A stretch of 64,000 bases of DNA from Candidatus Omnitrophota bacterium (GTDB taxonomy: Bacteria; Omnitrophota; Gorgyraeia; Gygaellales; Profunditerraquicolaceae), in contig JBAZKL010000002.1 of the NCBI GenBank assembly GCA_041650835.1, positions 410,435 to 474,434 of the forward strand. Direction: 5' to 3'. Position numbers and translations under genes: made by a program. The notes below the pieces were generated by a model, which saw only the letters and a program-made list of their open reading frames with translations, did not search any database and had not been told where the DNA came from. Of the stretch, positions 2,792 through 62,334 are shown piece by piece (position 1 is the first letter of the stretch; every line of letters begins with the position of its first letter).

Positions 2792-12577
<9,786 letters not shown>

Positions 12578-47415: not shown

Positions 47416-47460
47416 ATTTTAGACCTATTAAGTGATAAATAATTTAGTATTTATTACTTT

Positions 47461-47570: not shown

Positions 47571-47575
47571 ATAAA

Positions 47576-48364
47576 CTACAGGTATCGATAAATATATTCG
47601 GGGATATGGTATTGCACATTGGTCAAGACAAACCCTAAGATATTGACGCGCGCTTGACGTAATATGTCTTCACCATGCTTAATGATTCCTCGCTGAGTAC
47701 GATTAGCTTGAATCACCATTACAACTCCATCAGTTTGAGCCCCAATTAATCCTGCATCAGTTACCGGAATGATCGGAGGTGAATCAAAGATTACGTAATC
47801 AAACTTTTCTTTAAGTGTAGTTATTAAATTCTTGAATTTCATAGAGTTAAGAAGTTCTGCCGGATTATGAGGCACTTTCCCTGCAGGTAAAAACATTAAA
47901 TTATCAATCCCGATTTTAACGACAGCCTCATCAACATTAATTCCATTGCTGATCACTTCAGATAAGCCGGCTTCAGACTTAATACCTATATATTTGCTTG
48001 ATTTACCACGACGCAGATCTGCATCAACTAAAAGGATGCGTTTTTTGTTCAAATCGTGAGCCATTGAGACCGCAAGATTAATTGAAGTAACGCTTTTCCC
48101 TTCGCTATGGATTGAACTCGTAATAGTAATTGCCTTAATAGGTTTTTCTGAATTAATCGCCTGTATATTAGTCCTTAAAGTACGATACTGCTCCGCGACA
48201 GTTGAATGAAGATCGTAAAATGTGACAATACGCGGATCATATTTCGCGTCAACGGTCTTTTGAGCGACAAATTGATACGTGATCTCTGATTTTTCATCCA
48301 GTTTATCTATGCGGGATAGCCGTTCTTCAGCGGCTTTTTTTAATGCGTCGGTGATCTTACCCAT
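47576..48364 (-). CDS. BY-kinase (tyrosine autokinase) catalytic domain protein, CpsD/EpsG-like
   Basis: It has a P-loop ATPase motif (SSIHSEGKSVTSINLA) and a Walker B motif (ILLVDADLR). The C-terminal Tyr cluster is HIPEYIYRYL. The protein is 262 aa and lacks a transmembrane activator domain. Confidence 0.8.
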   Translation of the reverse strand: MGKITDALKKAAEERLSRIDKLDEKSEITYQFVAQKTVDAKYDPRIVTFYDLHSTVAEQYRTLRTNIQAINSEKPIKAITITSSIHSEGKSVTSINLAVSMAHDLNKKRILLVDADLRRGKSSKYIGIKSEAGLSEVISNGINVDEAVVKIGIDNLMFLPAGKVPHNPAELLNSMKFKNLITTLKEKFDYVIFDSPPIIPVTDAGLIGAQTDGVVMVIQANRTQRGIIKHGEDILRQARVNILGFVLTNVQYHIPEYIYRYL

Positions 48365-48397
48365 ATTTTCTCCTTAAAACTTGATTTCGTTTACAAA

Positions 48398-49408
48398 TTA
48401 AAGCGTTTTTGCCTGCTTTGTTGCATCAGGATTTTGCAAACACGCTAAATAATTATAGCAACTGTTACAACAAAATTGTTCTTCTCCTTTAGTTCCCCGC
48501 TCCCATTTGAGGCCGCAATCATTATAATGCAGGCAGCGAGTACAGCAATGGATCTTCCGAACGGCAAGAAGGGATATACCGCTCAGACCATTTTGCTCTT
48601 CCATTAATTCCCTATCTTTTATGACTTCTAAAACCATTCCTTCATTAATCGTCTTTGTATCAGCAATATATCCTGAAAGTAACGCGCTATCGCAAATGAG
48701 ATTTATGACCCGGGGAACGCCTCGAGAATGACGAAAAATCAGATCAATCGCTTGCGGCTGGAATATTTCAGCGTGTCCGTTTGAGCTCACCAGCGAAAGC
48801 CTATGCAGAATATAAGCAGTTGTTTCATCTTGAGTTAAAGGAGAGATATGGTAGTGCAAAGCAATACGCTGCCTAAATTGTTCGAGTGTCTTATGCCCTA
48901 GCTTCTTTTTCAACTCCGGTTGGCCGATAAGTATTATTTGTAAAAGTTTATCGGTTTCGGTCTCAAGATTTGAAAGCATCCTTACTTCTTCCAAAACATT
49001 ATGGCTTAAGTTCTGCGCTTCATCTATCATAAGAACAACGTTAATATTTTGAGAAAGTTGTTTGATCAAATAATCATTTAATTGAGACAACATCTTTTGT
49101 TTGCTTCCTGAGATACGAGCGATCTCAAATTCCTCCAGAATCTGAGAAATCAGCTCCTTCGCGCTCATATGGGTATTGGTGATCAACGCCACTTTAGTCC
49201 CGGCATCAAGCTTCTTTAATACTGCCCTGGTTACCGTGGTTTTGCCCGCGCCTATCTCGCCTGTAATAACCACAAACCCTTTTCTTTCCTCAATAGCATA
49301 GATCAAGCTATTCAATGCTTCTGTATGCTTAGAACTGGGGAAGAAAAATTTCGGATTCGGTGTTACATTAAACGGCTTATCTTTAAAACAAAAGAATTTT
49401 TCGTACAT
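48398..49408 (-). CDS. ExeA/MshM-like AAA ATPase with Cys-rich C-terminal tail
   Basis: Walker A is VVITGEIGAGKTT and Walker B is MIDEAQNL. The Cys-rich C-terminal tail reads CCTRCLHYNDCGLKW...CCNSCYNYLAC. The protein is 336 aa. Confidence 0.8.
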   Translation of the reverse strand: MYEKFFCFKDKPFNVTPNPKFFFPSSKHTEALNSLIYAIEERKGFVVITGEIGAGKTTVTRAVLKKLDAGTKVALITNTHMSAKELISQILEEFEIARISGSKQKMLSQLNDYLIKQLSQNINVVLMIDEAQNLSHNVLEEVRMLSNLETETDKLLQIILIGQPELKKKLGHKTLEQFRQRIALHYHISPLTQDETTAYILHRLSLVSSNGHAEIFQPQAIDLIFRHSRGVPRVINLICDSALLSGYIADTKTINEGMVLEVIKDRELMEEQNGLSGISLLAVRKIHCCTRCLHYNDCGLKWERGTKGEEQFCCNSCYNYLACLQNPDATKQAKTL

Positions 49409-49410
49409 AG

Positions 49411-50706
49411 TTATTGTTTAAGCAGCGAATAAAGCATTGAGATCACCATCACAAATATACCACCTGCTAACCCGGTAATTATAAATAAGCGTTTTCTATG
49501 CTTCTCATTATCAATTTCTTCACGTGTTGTTATACGAGAAATAGCCCCTAAAATAGGAAATTTTAGATGACGTTTAGCATCCTCAATATCAAGGAATGAT
49601 TGGTCCATAAACTCTCGCGTAAATACTAATCCTACTCCAGCAGCTCCTCCAAGAAAAAAACCAATCACTACAAAGAGCACCTTAGGCATCTTCGGCTGTA
49701 AAGGAAGCCGAGGAGGATCAATGATGGTATAGCGGGTGCCTTGTTTGGAAGCTTCAAGCCGCTGAGTGATCTTAGCCGTTTCTAACCTCTGAAGCAGCAT
49801 ATTGTAGATCTGCTCATTGACCCTGATATCTTGAGCCTTTGCTGAATCTAATTTATCCATTAAGAATAACTTATATATTGTTCCATTGACATCGCTTGTA
49901 CTATTATCAACAGCCATAGGAGCAGCAGCGCTATCTGTATTAAGCTTTTCTAGTTCGACCTGAAGCGTTTCACGCATTGCTTTTGTGATTGGCTTCTCAG
50001 AATCAGCGATCTTATATTCTCCGGACTCAAGCGCTTTCTTAGCCTGGTCAACCTTATGTTTTAATTCTTTGACTAACGGATGCTCTTCCGTGGAATTAAT
50101 AGTCAATACCCTTAACTGTTCCTCCAAATCAGCGATCTCTGATTCTTTAACCTTTCTTTTATAAACCTGGAGCTGCTCTTTAAGAAAGTTGATCGCTACA
50201 TCAGTTTCTTTAGTTTGGGAACGCATGCTTTCTTCAACAAACAGATCAGTCAATGTCTTAACCACTTTAAAAGCAGTTTGGGGATCTTTATCTCCATACG
50301 ATATCCTGATGATACTTTGCGCATTCAAATCTACCCTGATCTTCCTTGCCAGCGTTTTAATAAAATTTTCAAACTGAGATTGGCTTTCTACATTTTTTGC
50401 TAATTCCAGTTTTTTAACTAAATCTGTCAGATTATTCCAGCCAAGCAATCTTTCCCGTATCGTCTGCAGCCTTTGAGAAAAACTGGCGGAAACCGCTAAA
50501 TCCTGTATCAAAGGATTAATAGTCCTTTGTTCTTCGACTAAGATCGCGGTTGATGACTCATAGGTTGCCGGTAGAACAAAATATGCAACCACCCCTAAAA
50601 CCAATCCTATATACAGAGGCGTTAAAATAAACCATTTTCTGCGGAAAAAAAGCTTCAGGTATGCTATAGGATTGTTATATTTTTGTAACGGACTTTCATT
50701 TTCCAT
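49411..50706 (-). CDS. polysaccharide co-polymerase / chain-length determinant (Wzz/GumC/EpsF-like)
   Basis: An N-terminal TM helix (WFILTPLYIGLVLGVVAYFVL) is followed by a long coiled-coil periplasmic region and a C-terminal TM helix (LFIITGLAGGIFVMVISML). It lies 3 nt upstream of the ATPase gene. Confidence 0.75.
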   Translation of the reverse strand: MENESPLQKYNNPIAYLKLFFRRKWFILTPLYIGLVLGVVAYFVLPATYESSTAILVEEQRTINPLIQDLAVSASFSQRLQTIRERLLGWNNLTDLVKKLELAKNVESQSQFENFIKTLARKIRVDLNAQSIIRISYGDKDPQTAFKVVKTLTDLFVEESMRSQTKETDVAINFLKEQLQVYKRKVKESEIADLEEQLRVLTINSTEEHPLVKELKHKVDQAKKALESGEYKIADSEKPITKAMRETLQVELEKLNTDSAAAPMAVDNSTSDVNGTIYKLFLMDKLDSAKAQDIRVNEQIYNMLLQRLETAKITQRLEASKQGTRYTIIDPPRLPLQPKMPKVLFVVIGFFLGGAAGVGLVFTREFMDQSFLDIEDAKRHLKFPILGAISRITTREEIDNEKHRKRLFIITGLAGGIFVMVISMLYSLLKQ

Positions 50707-50723
50707 ATTAGTTTCCTCTAATT

Positions 50724-51617
50724 TTATTGTGTCGGCCTTGTAGGAGTTCTTATAGCTGTAACTGCTCCCGTCCCGGTAGTTGCCGCGGCTGCGCCGCTTG
50801 CTGCCGCTGTTAAAGGTTCGGTAACCGGATTAATGATCCGGGTAACTTTTGCCATTATAGTTGAAGGAACATATAGCACATCCCCGGGATGCATATCGAT
50901 ATTCTGTTTAAGATTCCCTCCATAAAGTAGGGAATATAAATTAACGTATTTAGTTTTGGGGTTGCCTTTCTTATCTGGAGTGATCAAACGGCATTTCCGC
51001 GTAGCGGATGCTATCGTAGGAAGCCCTGCTTCAACAATCGCTTCCCGTACAGGAATAGTTTCAGAACGCATATAATATTTACCCGGCCGGCCCACTTCTC
51101 CTAATACGTAGTAAACTTTACTACGGTATTCTAAGATAGTGACGTTAACTTCAGGATTGACCGCATAAGTTGATATCAATTGTTTTATTTTAGCCTCTAG
51201 TTCCTTTTTTGTCAGGCCTGTTACCACAATATCTCCAACATAATTATACTGAACCTTTCCCTCTAAATTAACAGGGAAAACTCCGCTGAATTCTGAATGA
51301 CGCTGAATGGTTATCTCAATAATATCATCAGGGCCCAGGGTATAGACCACTTCTTCATTGACCTTAACGGCTTTAGCCTCTGGAGCGGGCTGAACAAGTT
51401 GCTCTTGAGCCTGGGCTTCGGTCTTTACTTGATTCTGCGCCTGATCTACCACTGGAGTCACTTGAGCAGGTTCCTGAACCGTAGACTGAGTAACTACTAC
51501 GGTTTCTTGCTGTGTTTTAGTTATAGTTTCTTGAGCGTTCACCCAGGAAACACAAAAAAAACATATAATAAAAGCTAAACTTAAGCTAAATTTCTTTACC
51601 ATTTCCATCCTCCTCAA
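50724..51617 (-). CDS. polysaccharide export outer-membrane protein (Wza-like; Poly_export + SLBB domains)
   Basis: It has a signal peptide and a Poly_export-like region (YTLGPDDIIEITI...). An SLBB-like segment is present (PGDVLYVPS). The start is ambiguous among M1, M4 and M6. The gene overlaps the 51586..51786 gene by a few codons. Confidence 0.8.
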   Translation of the reverse strand: MRRMEMVKKFSLSLAFIICFFCVSWVNAQETITKTQQETVVVTQSTVQEPAQVTPVVDQAQNQVKTEAQAQEQLVQPAPEAKAVKVNEEVVYTLGPDDIIEITIQRHSEFSGVFPVNLEGKVQYNYVGDIVVTGLTKKELEAKIKQLISTYAVNPEVNVTILEYRSKVYYVLGEVGRPGKYYMRSETIPVREAIVEAGLPTIASATRKCRLITPDKKGNPKTKYVNLYSLLYGGNLKQNIDMHPGDVLYVPSTIMAKVTRIINPVTEPLTAAASGAAAATTGTGAVTAIRTPTRPTQ

Positions 51618-51786
51618 AAAAGATTATAGTTTCTTTAAAGTCTTTAAGCTTTCTGAAATCCTGCTTATCGTAAATCCTCCAGCCTCGCCAATCACGCTTA
51701 GGCTGTTGGACTTTACCGGATTTCTCCCAGCGCACGATCGTTTTAGGAGTTACTCCGATCCGATCTGCAACATCCGTTATGGTCAT
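51586..51786 (-). CDS. small MerR/excisionase-family HTH DNA-binding protein
   Basis: The sequence MTITDVADRIGVTPKTIVRWEKSGKV matches the excisionase/MerR-type HTH signature. The ATG is at 51786. The tabulated ORF starts at a GTG at 51801. Confidence 0.55.
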   Translation of the reverse strand: MTITDVADRIGVTPKTIVRWEKSGKVQQPKRDWRGWRIYDKQDFRKLKDFKETIIFFEEDGNGKEI

Positions 51787-52247
51787 TTTGCTGTTTGCCA
51801 CCGCATCCCCCTTGTAGTATTATATAACTTAACTGTCCTACTATGTCCTGGTATGTCTAGGTCTGTCTGATAAGTACATATATATAATATATAAGCACTA
51901 TCCATGCCAAGTCAAGCATTTAATTAAACAATTAACAATAACGACTGTAACCTATTTAAGATAAAATACTTATGGATGTTCTGCGATTTCGATAAATTTG
52001 CAGAAAACGGAGGTAAAACAGGGATGTTGCAGAAATGAAACTTTCAACTTTAGATCAGATTTTGTTATTGCTACGGAATGCCTACCTTAAGTTACTGCAG
52101 AACAAGGCGTTATAATGCGTGTTGCTTTATGTAAACAGATGTTGATTAACATTAGAGAAAAGGTGACAATCACAACACCCTTGCGCAAAAGTCGTGAAAG
52201 TCACCTTTCTCCGAAAACCGCTAACTGAATTTACTTAAGCTCCGATG

Positions 52248-52568
52248 CTATTGTTGAGGCGGCTGCTGCCCCTGAGGAGGCATATTCATTCTCTGCTGAG
52301 GGAAATCCATCCTCATGCGATTCTTCTGAAAATTACTCATCATCATAGCATTCTTACTCGGGCACATTTTAGACATGAGGAACAGGTTATTCACAATTAG
52401 AAAGAAGCTCAAAATAATAACAAAAACGCCGATAGCGACCCCTATCTGCTTCATAGTCTTCTCTTCCTGATTCGCGAAATAACACACAATATAACCTAAT
52501 GCTAACGCTACCAATAAAACCGCCTCATTCGCCAGGCTCATTTCAAAACTAGGCATGCCACCCATCAT
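52248..52568 (-). CDS. small membrane protein with Met/Gln/Pro-rich C-terminal tail
   Basis: Two predicted TM helices are followed by MMMSNFQKNRMRMDFPQQRMNMPPQGQQPPQQ. I recognise no family. Confidence 0.4.
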   Translation of the reverse strand: MMGGMPSFEMSLANEAVLLVALALGYIVCYFANQEEKTMKQIGVAIGVFVIILSFFLIVNNLFLMSKMCPSKNAMMMSNFQKNRMRMDFPQQRMNMPPQGQQPPQQ

Positions 52569-52602
52569 ATGTCCTCCTTATAGATTATAACCTGATTATT
52601 TT

Positions 52603-52785
52603 TTATCTGATACAATCACTCCTCCAGCAGCAAGACATTTGCTCGCAATAACTTCTCATACTTGCGAAACAATCGAAATTCCCTTCTTTTCGCTGTATCA
52701 TCCTTATCAACTCTTTTTTGGGATATTTCCATGGATCCCGCATGCCTAACCCTTTTGCTTTTTTCTGGACCTCAGAAAGACGCAT
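52603..52785 (-). CDS. small protein with Rho_N/SAP-like N-terminus and Cys-rich C-terminus
   Basis: The segment LSEVQKKAKGLGM...KKELIRMIQ resembles the Rho termination factor N-terminal helix-hairpin. The C-terminal CFASMRSYCEQMSCCWRSDC carries 6 Cys. The ORF is only 60 codons, so it is speculative. Confidence 0.3.
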   Translation of the reverse strand: MRLSEVQKKAKGLGMRDPWKYPKKELIRMIQRKEGNFDCFASMRSYCEQMSCCWRSDCIR

Positions 52786-52844
52786 CGCACACCTCCCTTT
52801 ACCTATATATGTAATGACCTTGTATCCTTAAAAAGATTGCTTCA

Positions 52845-52870
52845 CCCCTTCGGGGTTCGCAATGACACAA
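52845..52870. repeat. CCCCTTCGGGG hairpin + TTCGCAATGACAC repeat fragment
   Basis: It belongs to the same family as 2740..2777, read directly in the sequence. Confidence 0.55.
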
Positions 52871-52921
52871 TAGATTCTTCGTAAGAGCCTACACTCTAGC
52901 CCAGAATGGCACGTGCTAACC

Positions 52922-53635
52922 CTAAATATAGAAAGCTCTTCTTAAATCATCCCTGCGGCGTTCCGCAGCCAGGACAAATTCACTGATCTTAGCCTGATCA
53001 TAAAGCGCAAAGCTGTTATTAAGCGAAAACGACGCCAATTGTATCCCTTTACTGACCTTACCATCCTGAGAAGCAGTTTCCATGATCGCAAACGTTGCCA
53101 ATTCCAAGCTATGGCTTAACGAAATTTCTTTTGTATATAACGTATTCAATAAATAAGTTGCCAATGGAGTGATCCCTATGGCCATAAATCCCAGCAAAGT
53201 CCAGCGGTGCGGCGCGAAATTACGCTCGCTATGCAACGTAAATATTTCCGGAGAATCGATAAAACGAGCGTTCCCGATATCTTTCCTATATCCGGTCAGA
53301 ATAATATGCAGGGTCGGACGGTCTTCGAAAGCCACCTGGTCGAACCATTCATTATATTTCTTTATCGCGCAATCCCGGCAGATAATAAGCAATTCATCGA
53401 CGCTCAAGAGGCGGTAATTCGCAAGTTGATGCAATTCATAATAAATAACATCGATGATACTTGCCCCGAGCCCCCCGTCTCCGGCGATCGCCAATCCGCA
53501 AAAATCGCCGAGCTCGAATACTTTTTTGACCGTATCATTAACCGTCGTCGGCCCGCGCGGGTCGCCGCTGGTGACTCTGCTGTCAGAGGCGATCGCAATC
53601 CCGTTTTTCGTGATAATACCAATAGCTAGGGTCAT
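52922..53635 (-). CDS. proteasome-type (Ntn-hydrolase) peptidase homologue, HslV/Anbu-like
   Basis: The N-terminal M-TLAIGIITKNGIAIASDSRVTSG, followed by ...GLAIAGDGGLGASII, follows the proteasome beta-subunit pattern T-x-x-G-I-x-x-x-G-V-x-x-A-D-x-R...AG-x-x-AD. The protein is 237 aa and has no propeptide. Confidence 0.5.
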   Translation of the reverse strand: MTLAIGIITKNGIAIASDSRVTSGDPRGPTTVNDTVKKVFELGDFCGLAIAGDGGLGASIIDVIYYELHQLANYRLLSVDELLIICRDCAIKKYNEWFDQVAFEDRPTLHIILTGYRKDIGNARFIDSPEIFTLHSERNFAPHRWTLLGFMAIGITPLATYLLNTLYTKEISLSHSLELATFAIMETASQDGKVSKGIQLASFSLNNSFALYDQAKISEFVLAAERRRDDLRRAFYI

Positions 53636-54040
53636 TTATACTTTGTAAACTTTGTCTTTGGTCCTAACCCGGGAATCGACTAATAGCCCTATTTCATCGC
53701 CCTTTTTAGCCTGTTGAATTGGCACCCGGTCGATCTGCAGGGAACTTATTTTCTGTTTAAAATCAGTTGTATAGCCCTTGATCCGTATCGTATCCCCTAC
53801 AGCAACAGCAGTCTTTAATTTTATCACCGCGGCCCTTACTTGCGAGAAATAATGCGTGATTTCCCCTAAAAGAAGCTCTTTCCCCTTGGATTTCCGGGAT
53901 GATCGATTGGCTTCGCGAGAGGGTTTCTTCTTTGCAAGGGGCTTTTTTATAACAGTTTTTCTGGAAACGGCCTTTTTAAGCGGCTTTTTCTTAACGATCT
54001 TTTTCGCTGAAGCTGATTTCGTTTTCTTTTTCAAAACCAT
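53636..54040 (-). CDS. small protein with histone-H1-like Lys-rich N-terminal tail and C-terminal beta-barrel-like domain
   Basis: The first roughly 55 residues are about 45% Lys/Arg (KKKTKSASAKKIVKKKPLKKAVSRK...). The C-terminal ~75 residues resemble an EF-Tu domain-2-like barrel (GDTIRIKG...GDEIGLLV). The gene abuts the proteasome-like gene, stop to start. Confidence 0.5.
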   Translation of the reverse strand: MVLKKKTKSASAKKIVKKKPLKKAVSRKTVIKKPLAKKKPSREANRSSRKSKGKELLLGEITHYFSQVRAAVIKLKTAVAVGDTIRIKGYTTDFKQKISSLQIDRVPIQQAKKGDEIGLLVDSRVRTKDKVYKV

Positions 54041-54156
54041 GTTCCCTCCTCATCTCTATCGAAAACCAAACAATCGCGAATGCAAAAGAATGACGATATT
54101 CCCGCTACGCCATACTTTAACCTGCTCGGTTAATACGTAAGATAATAAAGGAGATA

Positions 54157-55233
54157 CTAAACTTCAACTAGGGAATCCATCTGGCCGTATGGATTCAATG
54201 CTTTTGTAGGATTACTGGGGTCTTCAGTCCAGACACCGTCAACGACAAAACGATAACGGTAACTCCCCGGACCGACGTTTAGTTTCCTCGTCCACATGCC
54301 GTCCTTTTTCTCCATACTGCTTTGTTTATCGAGTTTCCAATCGTTAAACTCACCCACCAGGAACACCTCTTTTGCCGCAGGGGCATAAATAGAGAAAGTC
54401 AATTGGTTTAATTTCGGGATCTCTTCTTTTAAGATCTCCACCAATTTATCATGAAGAACAGGCATAACATTAGAGAATTTTTCATTCAAAATGACCTCAC
54501 GGGACAAGCTGAAATAATCCTTAGTCCCGCGGGAATATTTATCGTACGCCAGGACATGTTTACCGGCGTTCTGGGCTTCTTTAAGCTTTACATTAACATG
54601 CACGATCGTGTTGAATAACCGGTCCTTGAACGCGGCCTTGATCTTATCCAGCATGGTAAATGAATGACGAAGCCTTGAATCAAAATTAGTCAATAAAACC
54701 CACCAGGAAACCGTGTGGCTGAGCCGGTCGCGCACGAGATCCATGATCTCAACTAACTGATTTAACCCTTCCAGGGAAAACCTGCTCGCCTCAACAGGTA
54801 TGATGATCTCATCCGTCGCGCGGATCGCATTGATGGTCAAAAGGCCTAAGTTAGGCGGGCAATCGATGATAACATAGTCATAACTATGTTTAAATTCATT
54901 AAGCTTCTCCCAAAGACGCGATTCACGGCCAATTTCACCGGCTAATTCCTGTTCAAGCGTGCTTAAAACTATTCTTGACGGAGCGATATCGAAATTATCG
55001 TCAACCTTCTGGACAATATCACTGAATTTCGCCTTCTTAGGCGTTAATTTTGAAAGGACATTATAAATACTGAGATCGGCTTTTATATTTAAACCTAATG
55101 TCGCATGCGCCTGGGGATCCAAATCTACCAGCAATACTTTACGCTTATTTACCGCCAGCGATGCAGCCAGGTTCACTGCCGTCGTTGTCTTGCCGCAACC
55201 ACCTTTTTGATTCGTGATTGAGATGATGCGCAT
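54157..55233 (-). CDS. ParA/MinD-family ATPase fused to C-terminal CBM48 / AMPK-beta glycogen-binding domain
   Basis: The deviant Walker A motif is ITNQKGGCGKTTTAVNLA and Walker B is YVIIDCPP. The C-terminal 80 aa match the AMPK1_CBM/CBM48 consensus: FSIYAPAAKEVFLVGEFNDWK...MWTRKLNVGPGSYRYRFVVDGVWTEDPSNP. Confidence 0.85.
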   Translation of the reverse strand: MRIISITNQKGGCGKTTTAVNLAASLAVNKRKVLLVDLDPQAHATLGLNIKADLSIYNVLSKLTPKKAKFSDIVQKVDDNFDIAPSRIVLSTLEQELAGEIGRESRLWEKLNEFKHSYDYVIIDCPPNLGLLTINAIRATDEIIIPVEASRFSLEGLNQLVEIMDLVRDRLSHTVSWWVLLTNFDSRLRHSFTMLDKIKAAFKDRLFNTIVHVNVKLKEAQNAGKHVLAYDKYSRGTKDYFSLSREVILNEKFSNVMPVLHDKLVEILKEEIPKLNQLTFSIYAPAAKEVFLVGEFNDWKLDKQSSMEKKDGMWTRKLNVGPGSYRYRFVVDGVWTEDPSNPTKALNPYGQMDSLVEV

Positions 55234-55293
55234 ACCTCATCCTCCTTTTTCTCAACAGATTATTAACCTACTTCTCCCCGAGCAACAAGTGGA

Positions 55294-55950
55294 TCAACGC
55301 AATAACCGGACATTATCTAAATAGACAGCCCCGTCTTTATTAAGGACGTTCCATTCTTCTATGATAAAAGACACACTGGTCATTTCCGTCCAGTCGGTTA
55401 TATTCTTAAAATCATCGAGGTTAATCTTAAAGGCCTGCCATTTATTGCTTAAGTCTTTGATATATACTTCCGATCTTTCATTGAAGGAATTAACAAACTC
55501 AACGCGCAGCGCCAGAGAATCCATATAGTTTGATTTCTTGCCGGAGAATTCCAGGACTTTATAAAAAACAAGGTTCTGCTTATTCAGATTAATGCTAAAA
55601 AGTTGTTTTTGGGAAGGATTAAAATTAAAGCCTATCTTAATGACTTCCGGGTGCAGGACGTGAGAAACGTGTGAGGTAACCGGGATATTTTTCCCTCTGG
55701 TGAGGGCGAATGAAACCAGGAACAAGAACACAACCAGGACTACGCCGATACCGATGAAAACGATATGCTTTGACTCTCTGGGTTTTTCTTTTATATTCTG
55801 TTCCCGCCGCAGAGGAGTATCTAAATATATTTTCGCAAGGTGTTCATAAATATCTTTTTTTTCCATTTCATCTTTTTTATAACATAAAACCGAATCCATG
55901 TCAACAGGTTTAAACATTTTTAACTTGCGAATGCGTTTACGCGCGGGCAT
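55294..55950 (-). CDS. single-pass membrane protein with C-terminal beta-sandwich (carbohydrate-binding-module-like) domain
   Basis: It has a Lys-rich N-terminus, a TM helix (IVFIGIGVVLVVFLFLVSFAL), and a C-terminal ~130-aa domain ending EEWNVLNKDGAVYLDNVRL, which is reminiscent of CBM/CIA30-like folds. Confidence 0.5.
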   Translation of the reverse strand: MPARKRIRKLKMFKPVDMDSVLCYKKDEMEKKDIYEHLAKIYLDTPLRREQNIKEKPRESKHIVFIGIGVVLVVFLFLVSFALTRGKNIPVTSHVSHVLHPEVIKIGFNFNPSQKQLFSINLNKQNLVFYKVLEFSGKKSNYMDSLALRVEFVNSFNERSEVYIKDLSNKWQAFKINLDDFKNITDWTEMTSVSFIIEEWNVLNKDGAVYLDNVRLLR

Positions 55951-55961
55951 TTTTAAGCTCT

Positions 55962-57524
55962 TTAGAATGAATCCAATGGTTTTTTTAAATACTCGGGGAT
56001 TTCCTTATCGATCAATGTATAAAAATTAGATAAATGCGTGCGGAAAAGTTTATCGAACCTCCCCCCGTCATCGCCATCGCCGTACCACCAGAACCAATCG
56101 CTGCCTTCACAGATGTACATCTGCTTCCACGCTGTTTCACTGACGGCCCCGCCTGAATCAAGTATCTTTTTTAATTCTTCCCGGGCAAGCGCTAAATATT
56201 CCCAGGCGCGGACCTTATAGGGGTTGCCGATCCATTTCGCGAAATCGCCATAGATCCATGACCCGGTGCCCAAAGTATCGATTTCATGTTTAGCGGGGAA
56301 TCTTTCCAGGTATTCAGAAACGGTAACAGTTTTTAAGAATGTTGATTCGGAAAGCTTCTGATACAATACGTCCAGGAAATCATGCCCGTCATTGGTAAAG
56401 TGCTCCCAGGCATTCTCTCCATCCATGGCTATCGTCACCAGAACATCTTCATGCTTAAAAGCGTTGGCGATATTCTCCAGATGCTTTAAAAGGTCGGCTA
56501 CCGCGTCCTGCGGCTTCCAATCATGATAGACAAATCCGATCAAATCGGAAAGGTTACGGTCCCTGAATATTATATTAAGATCTCCTTCCCGGCGTTTTAG
56601 AAGATGCGGCTGGTATAATAACGCGGTATCCCTCTTCTTTTTTTTCAACGATTTAAAAAGGATCGCTTCATCAGTAACGATCCATTTAACCCCCGATTGA
56701 ATAAAGAACGGCAGCACCTGCTCGCAAACCGACTCTTCAGACGGCCACATACCGGCCGCAGGGGCCGCGAACCTGTTTTTAAAGAACTCAAGGGCGCTCT
56801 TGACCTGCGCCAAGGCATCCTCAGGGTATGCGAACGGGATGCTCGGCAATATTGTTTTAGGATTGGCGTCCCGCGCGGTATTAGTGCTGTATAAAAGAGG
56901 CAGTATCGGATGGTAATAGGGGCTTACCGTAACCTCGAGCTGTTTACCGGCAACACATTTCTTGTACGCGGGGATAATCTCGTCAATGATCTCGAACTGT
57001 TTATCAAGGACGGTAAGTTTATCGTCTTCGGAGAAAAACCTGGCCTTATTCACGATAGCCCGCAATTCAGGCACATTCCGGCGAAAATACGGGTCAAACC
57101 ACGCCAAATTGAACCAAACCTGCAGGTCTAAATAATCCTGAGTGCTGTACTCCTTACGATGTTCTTTCTTAAAGAATAATTCATAATACCGGGGATGCAT
57201 CGCGATAACTTTATCCCGGTTGATCATGAAAAAGTTATTCAGGATAAACTCTTTTTCTTCAAGAAGTAACTCAGCCGCGGGTTTATACGAAAGCTCTAAG
57301 AACTTATCTTTTATTATTCCATGCGAATAATCTTCTAACTGCTCTAATAAAGACGGGACAAGATTAAAAGTCAAGTGGACTTGAGGATATTTCTCAACGA
57401 TCTTGAGCATGTCCAGGTAATCTTTTATCGCGTGCAGGCGTACCCAAGGCAACTCAGTCTCCTGAGTAATGAGGTTCTTGTAGTACGGTTGGTGCATGTG
57501 AAAGATTATGGCAAGATAAAGCAT
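55962..57524 (-). CDS. glycoside hydrolase family 57 protein (glycogen branching-enzyme-like)
   Basis: The N-terminal IIFHMHQPYY is the GH57 signature. The 520-aa length is typical of GH57 branching enzymes. A WxxxGSDWFWW-like motif lies near the C-terminus. Confidence 0.85.
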   Translation of the reverse strand: MLYLAIIFHMHQPYYKNLITQETELPWVRLHAIKDYLDMLKIVEKYPQVHLTFNLVPSLLEQLEDYSHGIIKDKFLELSYKPAAELLLEEKEFILNNFFMINRDKVIAMHPRYYELFFKKEHRKEYSTQDYLDLQVWFNLAWFDPYFRRNVPELRAIVNKARFFSEDDKLTVLDKQFEIIDEIIPAYKKCVAGKQLEVTVSPYYHPILPLLYSTNTARDANPKTILPSIPFAYPEDALAQVKSALEFFKNRFAAPAAGMWPSEESVCEQVLPFFIQSGVKWIVTDEAILFKSLKKKKRDTALLYQPHLLKRREGDLNIIFRDRNLSDLIGFVYHDWKPQDAVADLLKHLENIANAFKHEDVLVTIAMDGENAWEHFTNDGHDFLDVLYQKLSESTFLKTVTVSEYLERFPAKHEIDTLGTGSWIYGDFAKWIGNPYKVRAWEYLALAREELKKILDSGGAVSETAWKQMYICEGSDWFWWYGDGDDGGRFDKLFRTHLSNFYTLIDKEIPEYLKKPLDSF

Positions 57525-57543
57525 AGGATATTTAAGATTACAG

Positions 57544-57622
57544 GGTCACAAGTCACATGACACATGTCTTTAGGTGTTCTTTAGTCTTTAGTCTTGTGTC
57601 TTGTGTCTTGTGTCTTGTGTGT
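57544..57622. repeat. composite repeat: GGTCACAAGTCACATGACACATGTC head + heptamer array (TCTTTAG)x3(TCTTGTG)x4
   Basis: The head is nearly identical to 40282..40306. The heptamer periodicity was read directly (gtctttagtctttagtcttgtgtcttgtgtcttgtgtcttgtgtgtg). Confidence 0.8.
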
Positions 57623-57770
57623 GCCGCTTGCTGTCCAGAAAGGACGCACCCAGCGTTCCTCTTAAGCTGGGGTGCTGCGGCAACTTACACCCGGCGCTAA
57701 TCGCACCCCGCCTAATTGGTGTGGCGGGGTACGCCGCTTGCTGCGGCGGTATTGCGCCGGTGTGTTGTTT
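57623..57770. other. GC-rich structured intergenic island (possible small ncRNA)
   Basis: The GC content is locally far above the flanks. Several short hairpins are present: GTCC-agaaa-GGAC, CCCAGC-gttcctcttaa-GCTGGG and CACCCCGCC-taattggtgt-GGCGGGGT. The motif CCGCTTGCTG occurs twice as a direct repeat. Confidence 0.3.
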
Positions 57771-57812
57771 TCTACAACAAAAAACCCTCGGGGGAGAAAA
57801 TCCCCCCGAGGG
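57771..57812 (-). terminator. rho-independent terminator of the outer-membrane-protein gene
   Basis: The minus strand reads CCCTCGGGGGG-attttct-CCCCCGAGGG followed by TTTTTTTTGTTG. It lies 25 nt downstream of the stop at 57838. Confidence 0.75.
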
Positions 57813-57837
57813 CATTATAATTACTTGATCACTACTA

Positions 57838-59265
57838 TTAGAATGTCACCTTCATAGAACCGATTACCTGGGTCGCCTTCTTATTATTCTCAGCTGAGAA
57901 TACATTACCCGGCATGAACACTCCGGTATTTAAACCGAACTGTACATCTTCAGTATAATCATAGGTAACACCTAAATCAACTTCACTACCAAGATACTTC
58001 TTGCCGCCTTTTACCACGTAGGTAGGATCACCCGCGACTCCCGAGAAATTAACCGCAGAAGCACCGGTAAAAGAATGGTTAAGCCTTAAATAATAATAAT
58101 TCAACGCTATTTTTAAGTCTTCCATCGGCTTAATGCTGCCATTAAGGTTCAACAACTGCGCATTCGAATACCCTAAGATCTTATTGAATAAGGTCCCGCC
58201 TGCCTGATCTTCGTACATCGGATCCCAACCTCTATAGGTATCGGCAGTGCTGGCAGCTTTATCACCTGAAAGGAATGTATAGCTACCGCCAATGCTTGGG
58301 GTATATTTCGTGCTCGGCATCATCATATTCGCTACCGCTTGAAGAGCATACGCGGTAACTTTACGATTTAATCCGGTGTTTGAACCTTCATTCGGATACA
58401 AGGTTGTATTTGCCTGATGTTCGCCAAACTGGAAAGCAGCTTCCAAACCTAACATACAATTCTCGATACCGGTAAAAGCTAACCTGGCACCGGTTGTATT
58501 CAGGATCTCGGAGCTGGATATGCTTGCGACGCTTCCGCTATCTCTGTTTCTGGAGAACAAGTAAACTTCGGCATTCAAGTTCTTGTCAATCTCGAAGCCG
58601 GCGTTTACTCCGTACAAATTGATATCATTATCGATCGCGACGCTATTTTCAGTGATCTTGGAATAAATAATATCAAGCACCAAAGGATCGAAATTCAAAG
58701 TTGCCCTGATCGCGTCAAACGCTTTGCTGCTGCTTAAATCATCCAAGGAATCAGGTAAACCATGCTTATCGGTAGTACCATGTCCATCACCAATACCATT
58801 GGTTGTAGAGTCACCGATTATCAAACCATTACCGAATTTCATTTCCTGACGGCCGATGCTTAACGTTAAATGAGGATTCAAGAATTCTTTTAACGTAACA
58901 TACGCCAAGTCCAGGTCGATCTCGGTAGTATTGGCAACCGTAGTTGTTCCTGCGGCATTAAGCTGATTTGTCGCTCCCCAAACTCTTTCGTTCAATAATC
59001 TGACTACGGTAGAGACATTATCGGTAAGGTCAGCTTCAACTTTGACCCTGACGTTTGAAATTAAGGCCGTGATCTTACGGCTGAAACCGCTCGCGGTCAC
59101 ACCGCCCAGATCAGGCGCTTTCAAAGCCAAATAATTTCTATCAACGCCCATTACCGTGATATCTCCGCTAACTTTCACATTCTGGACCTCTGCGAATGCA
59201 GTAAAAGCCATTCCGACTACAAACGCAAGAGCAAGTACTACGATTAAACGTTTACTCATTTGCAT
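57838..59265 (-). CDS. outer-membrane beta-barrel protein (porin-like)
   Basis: The signal peptide is MQMSKRLIVVLALAFVVGMAFTAFA. The sequence has an alternating amphipathic beta-strand pattern rich in G/S/T/N/Y. The C-terminus ends in a Phe (...SMKVTF). Confidence 0.65.
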   Translation of the reverse strand: MQMSKRLIVVLALAFVVGMAFTAFAEVQNVKVSGDITVMGVDRNYLALKAPDLGGVTASGFSRKITALISNVRVKVEADLTDNVSTVVRLLNERVWGATNQLNAAGTTTVANTTEIDLDLAYVTLKEFLNPHLTLSIGRQEMKFGNGLIIGDSTTNGIGDGHGTTDKHGLPDSLDDLSSSKAFDAIRATLNFDPLVLDIIYSKITENSVAIDNDINLYGVNAGFEIDKNLNAEVYLFSRNRDSGSVASISSSEILNTTGARLAFTGIENCMLGLEAAFQFGEHQANTTLYPNEGSNTGLNRKVTAYALQAVANMMMPSTKYTPSIGGSYTFLSGDKAASTADTYRGWDPMYEDQAGGTLFNKILGYSNAQLLNLNGSIKPMEDLKIALNYYYLRLNHSFTGASAVNFSGVAGDPTYVVKGGKKYLGSEVDLGVTYDYTEDVQFGLNTGVFMPGNVFSAENNKKATQVIGSMKVTF

Positions 59266-59499
59266 ACCTCCTTTAAGAATAAGAATGAAGAATATAATGA
59301 ACTAGGTATTTAAGGATTTACTCCTAGGGAATTACATATATAGGTATATCATTGGATTTTCCTGACTTCAGGCTTATTTTAACGTTCACCTCCTTCATGC
59401 CGTGGATTAAAGTCATCTCCAATGGTATAACACCCGAATTGTCTTATTTTTTAACATAATCGCCGATATTTGTCAAGCATTTTTTTAGTTGTTGGCGAG

Positions 59500-59979
59500 C
59501 TATTTTATCGGGTCTTTCATTGCTGTAGCCGCCTTAACAGGCGCTTGTGATTTCGGGCCAAAAGAAACGGTAATGGCGACCGCGCTCCCCTTAGCCGACA
59601 CATTAACGATACATGTTTCTGTTTCGCGTTCAAAATTAAGCACGCGCTGTCCATATTCAATGATATTCAAAAGATTCCACTTACTCATCGCCATCTGCTC
59701 TTTATAAAAATTAACGACCAGGTCAAGGTCAGCCTTCCCCTGGTATCTTAAAACGCCGACCCGCACACCCGTGGCTTCAAAAGAATACGAATCTTTAGTG
59801 ATCAACTTAAAACCCGCAGGTACCGGTATATCGCTAAAACGCATCACCGGCGCGGGCTCAAGCAAGCCTTGAGCCTTTGATGAAGGATCATTGGTGAACG
59901 AAGCGCATCCGCATAAAAAGATCAGAACCGCGATCATCACTGATACTATACCTGCATTGGGTTTCATGAGAACCTCCAA
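59500..59979 (-). CDS. lipoprotein, hypothetical
   Basis: The signal peptide carries a lipobox (IAVLIFLCGCAS). The protein is 159 aa. Confidence 0.5.
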   Translation of the reverse strand: MEVLMKPNAGIVSVMIAVLIFLCGCASFTNDPSSKAQGLLEPAPVMRFSDIPVPAGFKLITKDSYSFEATGVRVGVLRYQGKADLDLVVNFYKEQMAMSKWNLLNIIEYGQRVLNFERETETCIVNVSAKGSAVAITVSFGPKSQAPVKAATAMKDPIK

Positions 59980-60009
59980 CTTTTATAATTCTCTACAAAA
60001 CTAATTGTT

Positions 60010-60050
60010 TTAGATTCCCGCTTAAAGCATGCGGGAATGACTAATTGGGG
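60010..60050. repeat. hairpin repeat TTAGATTCCCGC-ttaaagcat-GCGGGAATGACTAA
   Basis: It has the same ends as the 47461..47505 element but a different loop. Confidence 0.7.
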
Positions 60051-60163
60051 TCGCATACGGAAATGAATCTCAAGGTAACATTCGGGAATAATCAATGGAT
60101 AGTATAGTGGCCCCTGATACTCAATCCATTGGTTTTAATCATTATCACCGTTTTTCTTTAATT

Positions 60164-60190
60164 GTCATCCCCGCGAAAGCGGGGATCTAA
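60164..60190. repeat. hairpin GTCATCCCCGC-gaaa-GCGGGGATC
   Basis: It is a variant of the GTCATTCCCGC...GCGGGAATC family. It lies just downstream of the PHP gene stop on the minus strand. Confidence 0.65.
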
Positions 60191-60216
60191 AAAACTGAAT
60201 TGCTTTCACGATAACG

Positions 60217-60876
60217 CTATTTCCTGCTCTTAACTACCAGGAACTTACTCACATCTTTACTAACCGCCTCAACATCTTTACTGCTCAATCCGGCTTTTAA
60301 AGCAACCCGCATTAAAGCCGCAGGTGTAATGATATCCGATGGCTGATGGCTGTCTGTACTCAACACCATCTTCGCTCCCAATTTCAAAGCAAGCCCGGCA
60401 ACATGACCATTCGTCTTGCCATGGCCGTGACGGCTGGTTATCTCCAAAAATATGCCTTTTTTTCCGGCCAGGATGACGTCTGCTTCGCTAATAAGCCCCG
60501 GATGCGCCAGGATATCAATATCCGCCTCTAACGCGGCCTTATTGGTCCCGGGCACAACCGGTTCAACACCTGTCTCTCCATGAGCAACAATGATCTTAAT
60601 CCCGTTTTTTCTGGCAAGTAAGGATAACGGTTTAAATTGAGTAACAGGCACGTGGGTCAATTCCACGCCCGGTAAGACCTTAATAGGAGAATTTTTCGGC
60701 CAATGGCGGCAAAATTCAACAATAGCTTTGCTGTTCGATTCTATATTACTATAATCGGCATGATCGGTAATAGCGATAAGTTTATACCCTAACGCGCCGT
60801 AGCGTGCGGCAACTTCCGAAGGAAGTAAAACACCGTCGCTTAATAATGAATGGCAATGTAAATTGAAATTATACAT
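60217..60876 (-). CDS. PHP-domain metal-dependent phosphoesterase (histidinol-phosphatase-like)
   Basis: The N-terminal MYNFNLHCHSLLSDG is the PHP motif. The ATG is at 60876. The tabulated ORF start at 60921 would overlap the tRNA. Confidence 0.7.
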   Translation of the reverse strand: MYNFNLHCHSLLSDGVLLPSEVAARYGALGYKLIAITDHADYSNIESNSKAIVEFCRHWPKNSPIKVLPGVELTHVPVTQFKPLSLLARKNGIKIIVAHGETGVEPVVPGTNKAALEADIDILAHPGLISEADVILAGKKGIFLEITSRHGHGKTNGHVAGLALKLGAKMVLSTDSHQPSDIITPAALMRVALKAGLSSKDVEAVSKDVSKFLVVKSRK

Positions 60877-60891
60877 AGGGATTAAAGGTAA

Positions 60892-60965
60892 TGCCCCTGG
60901 CTGGAATCGAACCAGCCACACGCAGTTTAGGAAACTGCTGCTCTATCCTTATGAGCTACAGGGGC
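60892..60965 (-). tRNA. tRNA-Arg (anticodon CCT)
   Basis: The reverse complement folds as a cloverleaf. The acceptor stem is GCCCCTG/CAGGGGC, the D-arm GCTC...GAGC, the anticodon stem GCAGT/ACTGC with loop TTCCTAA, the T-arm GCTGG-TTCGATT-CCAGC, and the discriminator A. No CCA is encoded. Confidence 0.9.
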
Positions 60966-61004
60966 GACAAGGGCATTACTTAATTTTCTCCACAACCGGA
61001 TATT

Positions 61005-61517
61005 TTAGTATTTTATTAACGCAAAAAACGGGTAGCCTTTGATCTTTTCTTTGCCTTTTAAACCGGTAAGCTCAATAAGACAGGCAACACCAATGATCTT
61101 GCCCTGAAGCTGTTTAACCAGATCTATAACTGCCTTGATCGTCCCTCCGGTAGCCAAAAGGTCATCAATGATCAAAACCCGCTCTCCCGGCTCTATGGCA
61201 TCCTGATGGATTTCCAGGGTATCTGTACCATATTCTAGATCATAGGTAACTGAACTTGTTTTCCAGGGAAGCTTCCCTTTTTTACGCACCGGAACGAACC
61301 CCGCGCCCAATTTGTGCGCCAAAGCGCCCCCGAGAATAAATCCCCGGGACTCTACAGCAATGATCTTAGCGATCTTTTTAGCCTTATATTTGCGGACAAG
61401 CTCGTCGACTGCCTTTTTAAAAGCCTTTTTATCCTTCAAAAGAGTAGTAATATCACGGAATAAGATCCCCGCTTTCGGAAAATCAGGGATATCGCGGATA
61501 GCAGCCTTAAGTTCCAT
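61005..61517 (-). CDS. apt: adenine phosphoribosyltransferase
   Basis: The N-terminal IRDIPDFPKAGILFRDIT and the PRPP-binding motif VLIIDDLLATGGT are present. The protein is 170 aa. Confidence 0.9.
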   Translation of the reverse strand: MELKAAIRDIPDFPKAGILFRDITTLLKDKKAFKKAVDELVRKYKAKKIAKIIAVESRGFILGGALAHKLGAGFVPVRKKGKLPWKTSSVTYDLEYGTDTLEIHQDAIEPGERVLIIDDLLATGGTIKAVIDLVKQLQGKIIGVACLIELTGLKGKEKIKGYPFFALIKY

Positions 61518-62334
61518 ATTTCCACTCCTTCTCCTGTTGTTTGATAAAACTACGCAGCTTCTTTAATGCTTCTTCCTCGATCTGGCGGATACGCTCCCGG
61601 GAAAGCCCCAGCTTCTTTGCCACCTCTGCCAAGGTATGAGTCGTTCCGTCCATAAGCCCAAAACGGTAATCTAAGACCTTACGCTCTCTTTCAGACATCT
61701 TTCCCATAAGGTTTTCAACGCGCTCTTTGTTCAAGAAGCGCTCTACATCAGCGTTCGGCGGCGCTATGCTTTCATCCTGCACAAGGTCCATGACCGAACC
61801 ATCATCATCTTCCCCGACAGGAGCTTCAAGCGAAGATGTCTTTGTCGACAACCAGAAATTTATCTCTTCCACTTTTTCTTTGGCGATCTTCATCTTCTTA
61901 GCGATCTCTTCATCCTGGGGGACGCGTTTGAGCTTCTGCGTCAACTGTTCCCTGGTCTTCTTCCATTTAGAGATCATCTCGTTCATATAAACCGGCAGGC
62001 GGATGACCTTGCCCTGCTGGCCGATAGCCCGGATAATCCCCTGGCGGATCCACCATGCGGCATATGTTGAGAAACGGAATCCCTTTTTCGGGTTGAATTT
62101 ATCCACGGCTTTCATTAATCCGAGGTTGCCTTCTTCGATCAAATCCAAAAGCGGCGTTCCGAAATGGATATACCGCTTGGCAATATTAATGACCAGCCGC
62201 AGGTTGGAACGTATCATTTTCTTGCGGGCTTCGTCATTTCCTCGACGTGCTTTAGTGCCGAACTCAACTTCTTGCTGCGCGGTCAAAAGAGGGATAGTCC
62301 TTACTTCTTTAAGGTACGTTTTGAGAGATTCCAT
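61507..62334 (-). CDS. RNA polymerase sigma factor, sigma-70 family (regions 2-4; RpoS/group-2-like)
   Basis: Region 2.x contains FSTYAAWWIRQGI. A region-4 HTH is present (LAEVAKKLGLSRERIRQIEEEALKKLR). The protein is 275 aa. Confidence 0.85.
   Translation of the reverse strand: MESLKTYLKEVRTIPLLTAQQEVEFGTKARRGNDEARKKMIRSNLRLVINIAKRYIHFGTPLLDLIEEGNLGLMKAVDKFNPKKGFRFSTYAAWWIRQGIIRAIGQQGKVIRLPVYMNEMISKWKKTREQLTQKLKRVPQDEEIAKKMKIAKEKVEEINFWLSTKTSSLEAPVGEDDDGSVMDLVQDESIAPPNADVERFLNKERVENLMGKMSERERKVLDYRFGLMDGTTHTLAEVAKKLGLSRERIRQIEEEALKKLRSFIKQQEKEWKYGT

Follow-up and report, generated by a model that had tools for sequence, protein, structure and literature searches.

A ParA-type ATPase fused to a CBM48 module in Omnitrophota and other bacteria, a candidate component of a glycogen-positioning system

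A fusion of a ParA-type ATPase with a CBM48 glycogen-binding module is encoded in a 64,000-nucleotide stretch of genomic DNA (contig JBAZKL010000002.1), which was analyzed as a whole and is called the window below. Close relatives are metagenome-assembled genomes (MAGs) of Candidatus Omnitrophota. The fusion gene belongs to a cluster of seven genes at positions 52248–57524 of the minus strand, all read in one direction. Five of these genes had been described from the letters of the window alone (hereafter, the sequence-only reading), and a check of the open reading frames (ORFs) returned all five at the same coordinates and on the same strand. The peptides quoted in that reading were recovered from the translation, and two of its descriptions were borne out by structure predictions. 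The features of the cluster and of its upstream flank are the following (aa, amino acids).

57784–57813, minus strand: intrinsic-terminator-like hairpin in the interval between a porin gene and the GH57 gene; 12-bp stem with 9 G-C pairs, then a T-run
55962–57524, minus strand: GH57 glycoside hydrolase, amylopullulanase-like (by Pfam and solved relatives)
55294–55950, minus strand: 218-aa membrane protein, the candidate ParA partner; probable start at Met29 (55866)
55819–55866, minus strand: N-terminal peptide of the partner, MEKKDIYEHLAKIYLD (by conservation and adjacency)
54157–55233, minus strand: ParA-CBM48 fusion, 358 aa (both halves by Pfam)
54484–55233, minus strand: ParA domain of the fusion, a Soj-type deviant Walker A ATPase (residues 1–250)
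54421–54483, minus strand: linker of the fusion (residues 251–271)
54160–54420, minus strand: CBM48 / AMPK-beta-type module of the fusion (residues 272–358)
53636–54040, minus strand: Lys-rich protein, 134 aa
52922–53635, minus strand: gene similar to proteasome-type N-terminal nucleophile (Ntn) hydrolases, 237 aa (Pfam Proteasome)
52603–52785, minus strand: Cys-rich protein, 60 aa (cluster c8), seen in 14 loci
52248–52568, minus strand: small membrane protein, 106 aa (cluster c18), with homologs in 9 loci

The intergenic gaps from the GH57 gene to the c18 gene are 11, 60, 116, 0, 136 and 34 bp long. None of them contains a terminator comparable in strength to the hairpin at 57813–57784, which is the likely upstream boundary of the transcription unit. 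The porin was considered as an operon member and ruled out by this strong terminator. The shared direction of the genes says little, because the minus strand holds all large ORFs of the window, including those of at least 150 aa at positions 1–47500 and all identified genes at 47500–62300. The GC skew is negative in each 2-kb bin of the window (1–64000), consistent with a long single-replichore stretch.

The ATPase half of the fusion matches the Pfam families AAA_31 at residues 1–174 (E-value 1e-54; 185.6 bits, cut-off 27) and CbiA (63.8 bits, cut-off 25.4), and its deviant Walker A motif, NQKGGCGKTT, includes the signature lysine. The closest solved structure is the chromosomal ParA of Myxococcus xanthus (8RAY; E-value 8e-54, 43.6% identity), followed by the Soj proteins of Thermus and Helicobacter. 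Functional residues were mapped onto 121 diverse fusions via a study of the M. xanthus ParA-ParB interaction (PMC12462528). The signature and Walker A lysines K10 and K15, the catalytic D39 (M. xanthus D60, Bacillus subtilis Soj D40) and the Walker B residue D124 are invariant in all 121 proteins. The DNA-binding R187, the counterpart of R189 in B. subtilis Soj and R238 in M. xanthus, is kept in 109 of them, and position 216 is Arg or Lys in 97. The ParB-peptide pocket L150/G151/L152, which corresponds to L129/G130/L131 of the window fusion, stays hydrophobic/Gly/hydrophobic throughout the set. The assignment to the ParA/MinD deviant Walker A ATPases made in the sequence-only reading thus holds. 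With every catalytic residue kept, the fusion looks like an active ATPase, and by sequence comparison it is clearly Soj-derived.

Two other classes were considered for the ATPase and rejected. The carboxysome ATPase McdA (6NOO) matches the fusion with an E-value of only about 4e-15 to 5e-15, far behind the Soj-type proteins, and no carboxysome genes were found near the fusion. As to a role in defence, PADLOC models gave only two weak P-loop matches for the fusion (E-value ~1e-5) and none for the other six proteins of the cluster. The minD equivalog model TIGR01968 scored below its cut-off (53.7 vs 212.9).

The C-terminal half matches AMPK1_CBM at residues 286–358 (E-value 2e-12; 47.4 bits, cut-off 26.8) and CBM_48 (6e-9; 36.5 bits, cut-off 22.4), and its closest solved relative is the glycogen-binding domain of AMPK beta1 (1Z0N, E-value 2e-9), so that the initial CBM48/AMPK1_CBM call was retained. 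Four residues of AMPK beta1, W100, K126, W133 and N150, which we take to be ligand contacts in the 1Z0N complex, correspond to W299 (kept in 121 of 121 fusions), K/R328 (118), W335 (117) and N/D353 (111), so that the aromatic and polar positions for glucan contact are retained. The linker between the two halves varies from 3 to 356 residues among 120 fusions, with a median of 41, and Ala, Glu, Pro and Ser are abundant in it. The fusion has no signal peptide, so the module faces the cytoplasm, where glycogen would be the only alpha-glucan that it could meet. The same CBM48 subfamily also occurs in up to 18 tandem copies per protein (P0121, 1812 aa; P0137, P0228, P0229, P0232, P0259; loci L066, L067, L086, L087). 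Some of these proteins are from Krumholzibacteriota and Hydrogenedentota, and they possibly have a role in glycogen scaffolding or surface starch binding.

An exhaustive search of 50%-identity clusters found both domains in 126 of the best 150 representatives, and a word-indexed search gave over 120 full-length fusions with identities of 66–99%, all from Omnitrophota. Loci with the fusion span Omnitrophota, Planctomycetota, Thermodesulfobacteriota, Zixibacteria, Krumholzibacteriota, Nitrospirota and NC10, i.e. at least seven phyla; members identified by name belong to Planctomycetota, Nitrospirota, Krumholzibacteriia, NC10 and Sedimentisphaerales. Some MAGs labelled as Planctomycetia have Omnitrophota-type neighbourhoods and may be mislabelled. 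This breadth identifies the fusion as a conserved family rather than a sporadic artefact, a doubt that the sequence-only reading had itself raised. Species-representative genomes were scanned with 10 CBM sequences sharing Y[KR]FVVDGxW, and the sample is biased towards that motif; among the best 80 of more than 588 matches, 57 loci have the fusion and 2 more have a split copy. These loci include one from the complete genome of Candidatus Velamenicoccus archaeovorus (NZ_CP019384.1); contigs JAMWCX010000001.1 and CAVXWK010000001.1 represent other complete or near-complete genomes with the fusion.

Clustering of all ORFs around 65 fusion loci defined five types of neighbourhood. Type I, that of the window (about 26 loci), includes a porin, GH57, a membrane protein of ~190 aa, the fusion, optional inserts, the Lys-rich protein and small proteins. 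In Type II (about 14–17 loci), a membrane protein of ~240 aa and the fusion are located among housekeeping genes (PurL/PurQ, RmuC, UvrD; LOG, MnmG, M48 peptidase, EndoIII), and this candidate partner is the sole non-housekeeping neighbour of the fusion. Type III, found in Omnitrophota, Zixibacteria, Nitrospirota and others, consists of the fusion, a soluble protein of ~300 aa and a protein of ~200 aa, with DUF4912 and a true GH57 branching enzyme added at three loci. The fusion is followed by a 145-aa protein in Type IV (Thermodesulfobacteriota) and by a protein of 500–590 aa in Type V (Phycisphaerae). The types correspond to subclades of a crude neighbor-joining tree, which also places canonical Soj, represented by three references only, with ParA-only proteins and apart from the fusions. 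The Type IV fusions (377–440 aa; L032, L041, L050, L054, L034) nest within the Omnitrophota Type II clade of this tree, which suggests horizontal transfer. At one further locus (L095, 12045–15802), a long-linker fusion and two partners are encoded just upstream of a division and cell-wall cluster with mraZ, rsmH and a gene similar to penicillin-binding protein/FtsI.

The candidate partner in the window is the 218-aa product of the gene upstream of the fusion. It has a cytoplasmic N-terminal helix, a basic linker, one transmembrane helix and an extracytoplasmic CBM-like beta-sandwich, which agrees with the single-pass membrane protein of the sequence-only reading. Among 46 homologs, the 16 N-terminal residues MxKKDIYEHLAKIYLD are nearly invariant, and the remainder is ~50% identical. 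Since typical family members begin at the methionine equivalent to Met29, the latter is probably the real start. The adjacent genes of most types encode a common motif, [ED]-x-[LIV]-[AS]-x-[LIVT]-[YF]-[LF], within the first 10–40 residues: the window has EHLAKIYL, V. archaeovorus has DHIASTFF, Type II EELAKTYF, Type III LGKGLEDISHLFLS and Type V LSDISHLFLS. A relaxed pattern matched the adjacent gene at 44 of 62 loci vs 26 of 1376 other ORFs (1.9%). Of three additional loci inspected prospectively, two have the motif in the downstream gene.

Two partner families carry the motif. In hhalign comparisons, c4 and c9 align with 98% probability and c38 and c79 with 97%, vs 0.1% for c4 and c38, and by this measure the two families are mutually unrelated. 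In Types I and II, which make up 40 of the 65 loci, the partner is a bitopic membrane protein whose N-terminus is on the inner side; that of Types III and V is soluble. The Type III peptide LGKGLEDI resembles ParB's motif for binding ParA, for which we assume the consensus LG(R/K)GL. In M. xanthus, the ParB motif is a short helix that has four hydrophobic residues, with an Arg/Lys at its centre, and docks in a pocket at the dimer interface (PMC12462528). From the conservation of the N-terminal peptides, their adjacency to the fusion and the analogy with ParB, we infer that they bind and activate the fusion. The likely ATPase partner in the window is the upstream 218-aa membrane protein and not the Lys-rich protein.

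The Type III partner, a protein of ~300 aa, joins an N-terminal peptide similar to that of ParB, KKLGKGLEDISHLFLS, to a degenerate ParA/MinD-like body (Pfam CbiA, E-value 0.002; hhalign against ParA, 37%). It is encoded at L060 (10264–11181), L081 (9126–10058), L008 (9168–10190) and L042 (6843–7796), and the next gene encodes a conserved protein of ~200 aa whose fold is unknown.

The first gene of the cluster indeed encodes a GH57 protein (Glyco_hydro_57, E-value 1e-61), but not the branching-enzyme-like one of the sequence-only reading. Its best solved relative is the amylopullulanase AaApu of Aquifex aeolicus (8ZYI/9JLQ, E-value 3e-82), whose catalytic Glu256 and Asp352 align to E263 (WPSE) and D368 (DGEN). 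The first conserved region is FHMHQPYY (HQP-type); the true GH57 branching enzymes of related loci have HGHLPF and a BE_C domain. A Pfam search found no BE_C domain (PF09210) in the window protein, and the NCBIfam branching-enzyme model gave 19.8 against a cut-off of 1000. Judging from these comparisons, the enzyme is amylopullulanase-like, of a degradative or debranching type. It has no signal peptide, and its catalytic domain starts at residue 2, indicating a cytoplasmic location.

GH57 genes are present within the examined flanks of 22 of the 65 fusion loci, and of 16 of the 36 loci with at least 3 kb on both sides. This linkage occurs in at least four arrangements, one of them with a true GH57 branching enzyme and DUF4912. 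The association seen in the window thus recurs, with fusions enriched near alpha-glucan genes, but it is not universal. At two Omnitrophota loci (L076, L078), a standalone CBM48 of the same subfamily is located in a GH57-DUF4912-GH57 branching-enzyme cluster. Gene context of this kind makes the glycogen link of the CBM subfamily well supported; that of the fusion is supported, being enriched and not universal. Omnitrophota MAGs were reported to encode glycogen synthesis (PMC8542988). A standalone 189-aa CBM48 was also found in a GH13-GH13-CBM-GH77 cluster of the cultured Desulfatitalea alkaliphila M08but (L083, 5444–12070), where GH77 is a 4-alpha-glucanotransferase; this bacterium is tractable for testing the binding of the CBM subfamily.

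We suggest, at about an even chance of being right, that the fusion and its partner constitute a dedicated two-component system of the ParA type, with the ATPase wired directly to cytoplasmic alpha-glucan (glycogen). The system would link alpha-glucan with the nucleoid and, in Omnitrophota, also with the membrane. In the proposed mechanism, an ATP-bound dimer of the fusion would reside on the nucleoid, and its two flexibly linked CBM48 modules would hold glycogen particles. The partner encoded by the neighbouring gene would offer a short N-terminal helix to the ParA dimer (MEKKDIYEHLAKIYLD in the window, the ParB-like LGKGLEDISHLFLS in other lineages) and, together with DNA, would trigger ATP hydrolysis and release. 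The candidate peptide MEKKDIYEHLAKIYLDTP would bind the fusion at the L129/G130/L131 pocket and stimulate the ATPase. Cycles of binding and release would spread or tether glycogen along the nucleoid, where it would be accessible and shared by daughter cells instead of being polar. In the Omnitrophota lineage of the window, activation would take place at the inner membrane, in which the partner is anchored, and the same polymer would be the substrate of the presumably co-transcribed amylopullulanase-like GH57.

A wider proposal, held more tentatively and at somewhat less than an even chance, is that of a widespread, organelle-like glycogen-positioning system in at least seven phyla. It would combine a ParA that has its own glycogen module with ParB-mimicking peptides on non-ParB partners, which would be a membrane protein with a CBM-like ectodomain in Omnitrophota and a degenerate ParA-like protein elsewhere. 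In a bolder variant, the fusion in some Omnitrophota would have taken over the slot of the chromosomal ParA, linking the inheritance of the chromosome to that of the carbon store.

Several points weigh against a glycogen-positioning system. Any ratchet would have an unusual geometry: the activator of classical ParA systems rides on the cargo, whereas here the cargo module is on the ATPase and the Omnitrophota activator sits in the membrane. The proposed mechanism also gives no part to the partner's extracytoplasmic CBM-like domain. In about two thirds of the fusion loci (Types II, IV and V), GH57 and other glucan genes are absent from the examined flanks. The motif counts come from loci that are not phylogenetically independent, and one of the three prospective loci has no partner. 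No motif was found in the examined neighbours of Type IV, among them the downstream protein of 145–164 aa (MPFIRKRRIWWEP...). The scan for ParB covered the locus flanks and the window, and a canonical ParA-ParB pair may lie elsewhere in the same genomes.

The last of these limits bears on an alternative that we consider unlikely, in which the fusion is the chromosomal Soj/ParA itself, to which a CBM48 has been added, and ParB is encoded elsewhere. The CBM would then be an AMPK-beta-like glycogen sensor that couples segregation or replication control to carbon reserves. The Soj-type ParA domain, with chromosomal ParAs as its best solved relatives, fits this explanation, as do the conserved ParB-peptide pocket and DNA-binding residues and the ParB-like motif of the c38 partners. 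Moreover, mnmG/gidA is two to three genes away in Type II loci, and gidA neighbours soj-spo0J in many bacteria. However, tblastn with Spo0J found no ParB in 88 loci (±8–10 kb), including all 65 fusion loci, or in the 64-kb window, and none is listed in the precomputed Pfam tables of the loci. A chromosomal Soj with an unrelated appended domain had also been named in the sequence-only reading, as an outcome that would refute it. The adjacent protein that bears the motif is not a ParB, the NCBIfam ParA_partition model gives 108 bits against a cut-off of 180, and the existence of several distinct fusion subfamilies with differing partners also argues against this explanation, as does, with the reserve due to a crude tree with few references, the separate position of canonical Soj. 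The closest ParA-only relatives of the fusion are orphan ParAs of 319–330 aa that have no ParB nearby, which says little either way. A literature search on ParB in Omnitrophota found nothing.

It is similarly improbable that the fusion acts as a MinD-like membrane tether, recruited by the partner helix so that glycogen or its enzymes are anchored at the inner membrane and the nucleoid has no role. The bitopic partner of Types I and II, with its N-terminus inside, would suit a tether. In addition, Omnitrophota cells are reported to be very small, which brings the membrane and the nucleoid close together. On the other hand, the DNA-binding residues are conserved family-wide, the partners of Types III and V are soluble, and the fusion has no MinD-type C-terminal amphipathic membrane-targeting helix, its C-terminus being the CBM48 module.

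The sequence-only reading had assigned the activating role to the 134-aa protein, whose basic N-terminal tail would stimulate the ATPase. The description of this protein as a Lys-rich tail followed by a small beta-barrel was accurate: the tail is disordered, 54 residues long and has conserved Lys positions, and the barrel resembles the U32-peptidase C-terminal domain and domain II of translation factors, the only Pfam match being a sub-threshold one to EF-Tu domain 2. Its gene is downstream of the fusion and conserved in 29 Type I loci, and basic tails do stimulate some ParA ATPases. Still, we find the activating role doubtful to a high degree. Homologs are confined to Omnitrophota and, outside Type I, to one Type II locus (L015); nitroreductase-like, OsmC-like or DUF4870-like genes often separate the protein from the fusion; a ParB-type hydrophobic helix motif is lacking; the barrel resembles RNA- or ribosome-binding domains; and a better candidate directly adjoins the fusion in most lineages. 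By analogy with the Lys-rich nucleoid tethers of polyhydroxybutyrate granules, the Lys-rich protein may bind nucleic acid. Its distribution suggests that it and the small downstream proteins are lineage-restricted accessories of the Type I neighbourhood.

Finally, a machine for polysaccharide synthesis or export analogous to BcsQ systems, in which the porin, GH57, the membrane protein and the ATPase would handle extracellular alpha-glucan, is very improbable given the strong terminator between the porin and the cluster, the absence of a glycosyltransferase or synthase from the cluster, the lack of a signal peptide in GH57, the cytoplasmic CBM48, the absence of the porin and exopolysaccharide genes from Types II–V, and a BcsQ model (TIGR03371) score of 75.5 vs a cut-off of 157.85.

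The proposed glycogen-positioning system resembles several characterized ones in part. As in ParABS of M. xanthus (8RAY, PMC12462528), the ATPase is of the same type and has the signature Lys, the catalytic Asp, the DNA-binding basic residues and the ParB-peptide pocket, and the Type III peptide is essentially the motif of ParB. In contrast to ParABS, no ParB is encoded nearby, there is no CTPase or parS-binding partner, its place being taken by a CBM-like membrane protein or by a P-loop protein that is degenerate, and the fusion carries its own module for a cargo that is presumably polysaccharide, not DNA. McdAB, PomXYZ, ParC-ParP and PpfA-TlpT share with the fusion a ParA-family ATPase, a neighbouring non-ParB partner, a presumed nucleoid matrix and a cytoplasmic body as cargo, but in these systems the partner binds the cargo, whereas here ParA itself carries the cargo domain. 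The signature Lys, present in the fusion, is not known from cyanobacterial McdA.

The CBM half is of the same fold family as the CBM48 of AMPK beta (1Z0N) and of the plant proteins SEX4 and LSF1, with the Trp/Lys/Trp/Asn set kept and a non-catalytic CBM on a cytoplasmic regulatory or scaffold protein. The fusion differs in being bacterial and in having a P-loop ATPase instead of a kinase scaffold or phosphatase. Segregation of polyhydroxybutyrate (PHB) granules uses the Lys-rich nucleoid tethers PhaM and PhaF, and the inclusion of PHB granules among ParA cargoes in the sequence-only reading could not be confirmed. PhaM and PhaF similarly place storage granules on the nucleoid for equal inheritance, and their Lys-rich histone-like tails resemble that of the 134-aa protein; they are, however, passive tethers with no ATPase cycle, and the polymer is a different one. 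Like the fusion, BcsQ is a ParA/MinD-family ATPase at polysaccharide machinery, accompanied by a membrane protein with periplasmic carbohydrate-binding domains (BcsB). Unlike in BcsQ systems, there is no synthase, and the CBM48 is cytoplasmic and specific to alpha-glucan; bcsA and bcsB genes were found in none of the loci examined.

ParA/MinD ATPases are the general means by which bacteria place chromosomes, plasmids, carboxysomes, chemoreceptor arrays and division sites. Glycogen is the most common carbon store, and we know of no positioning machinery for it. Neither a ParA-CBM48 protein nor a ParA-based system for positioning or partitioning glycogen was found described in open-access papers and bioRxiv, in line with the sequence-only reading. 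While ParA/MinD cargo systems as a kind are known, the cargo, the architecture and the partner families would be new. If confirmed, the system would represent a new cargo class for ParA/MinD proteins, a new design in which the ATPase itself bears the cargo-binding domain, and a clear case of the ParB activating peptide being reused on unrelated partners. It would also provide the first functional hypothesis for several large unannotated protein families of Omnitrophota and other poorly known phyla. The 16-residue peptide, the CBM48, for which point mutants can be predicted, and the Soj-like ATPase are simple reagents for testing. According to its title, a 2025 study links glycogen phase separation to macromolecular rearrangement and asymmetric division in E. 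coli (PMC12706056), and on this ground the location of glycogen would affect cell organisation.

Among the remaining genes of the cluster, the proteasome-like one matches Pfam Proteasome (E-value 4e-11) at residues 4–70 only. The family assignment made in the sequence-only reading stands, but the gene is probably no part of the system: it is a lineage-specific insertion, seen in the window and in the 87%-identical relative L093 and absent from all other Type I loci. Its start codon directly abuts the stop codon of the Lys-rich gene, and the protein begins with Met-Thr, which would give an N-terminal Thr after Met removal. The 60-aa protein, for which no Pfam match was found, has a helix-extended-helix-like N-terminus and a C-terminal CFG...C.Q..CCW..DC motif; one homolog has a weak Rho_N match. 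It travels with the Type I neighbourhood (e.g., L001, 9891–10073; L004, 9873–10055), as does the 106-aa membrane protein of cluster c18. A companion of the 60-aa gene in relatives, a 61-aa zinc-ribbon-like gene (MKYRCQIC...), is missing from the window. The MamF/MmsF label of a 108-aa neighbour was rejected; this is a DUF4870-like membrane protein by a weak match below the cut-off, and the window does not contain it.

Directly downstream of the cluster (46048–51801, minus strand), the window contains an exopolysaccharide export locus that encodes a 71-aa regulator of the MerR family, Poly_export, a Wzz/GNVR chain-length determinant, an AAA ATPase, a tyrosine-kinase-like ParA-fold protein and phosphoglucomutase; this gene order is kept in the relatives L002 and L093. 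At the other end of the window (2792–12577, minus strand), a giant ORF encodes an adhesin-like protein of 3261 aa with stretches matching He_PIG (18), Big_9 (17), cadherin-like domains (8–10) and PKD (2). Giant proteins of such sort have been reported for Omnitrophota.

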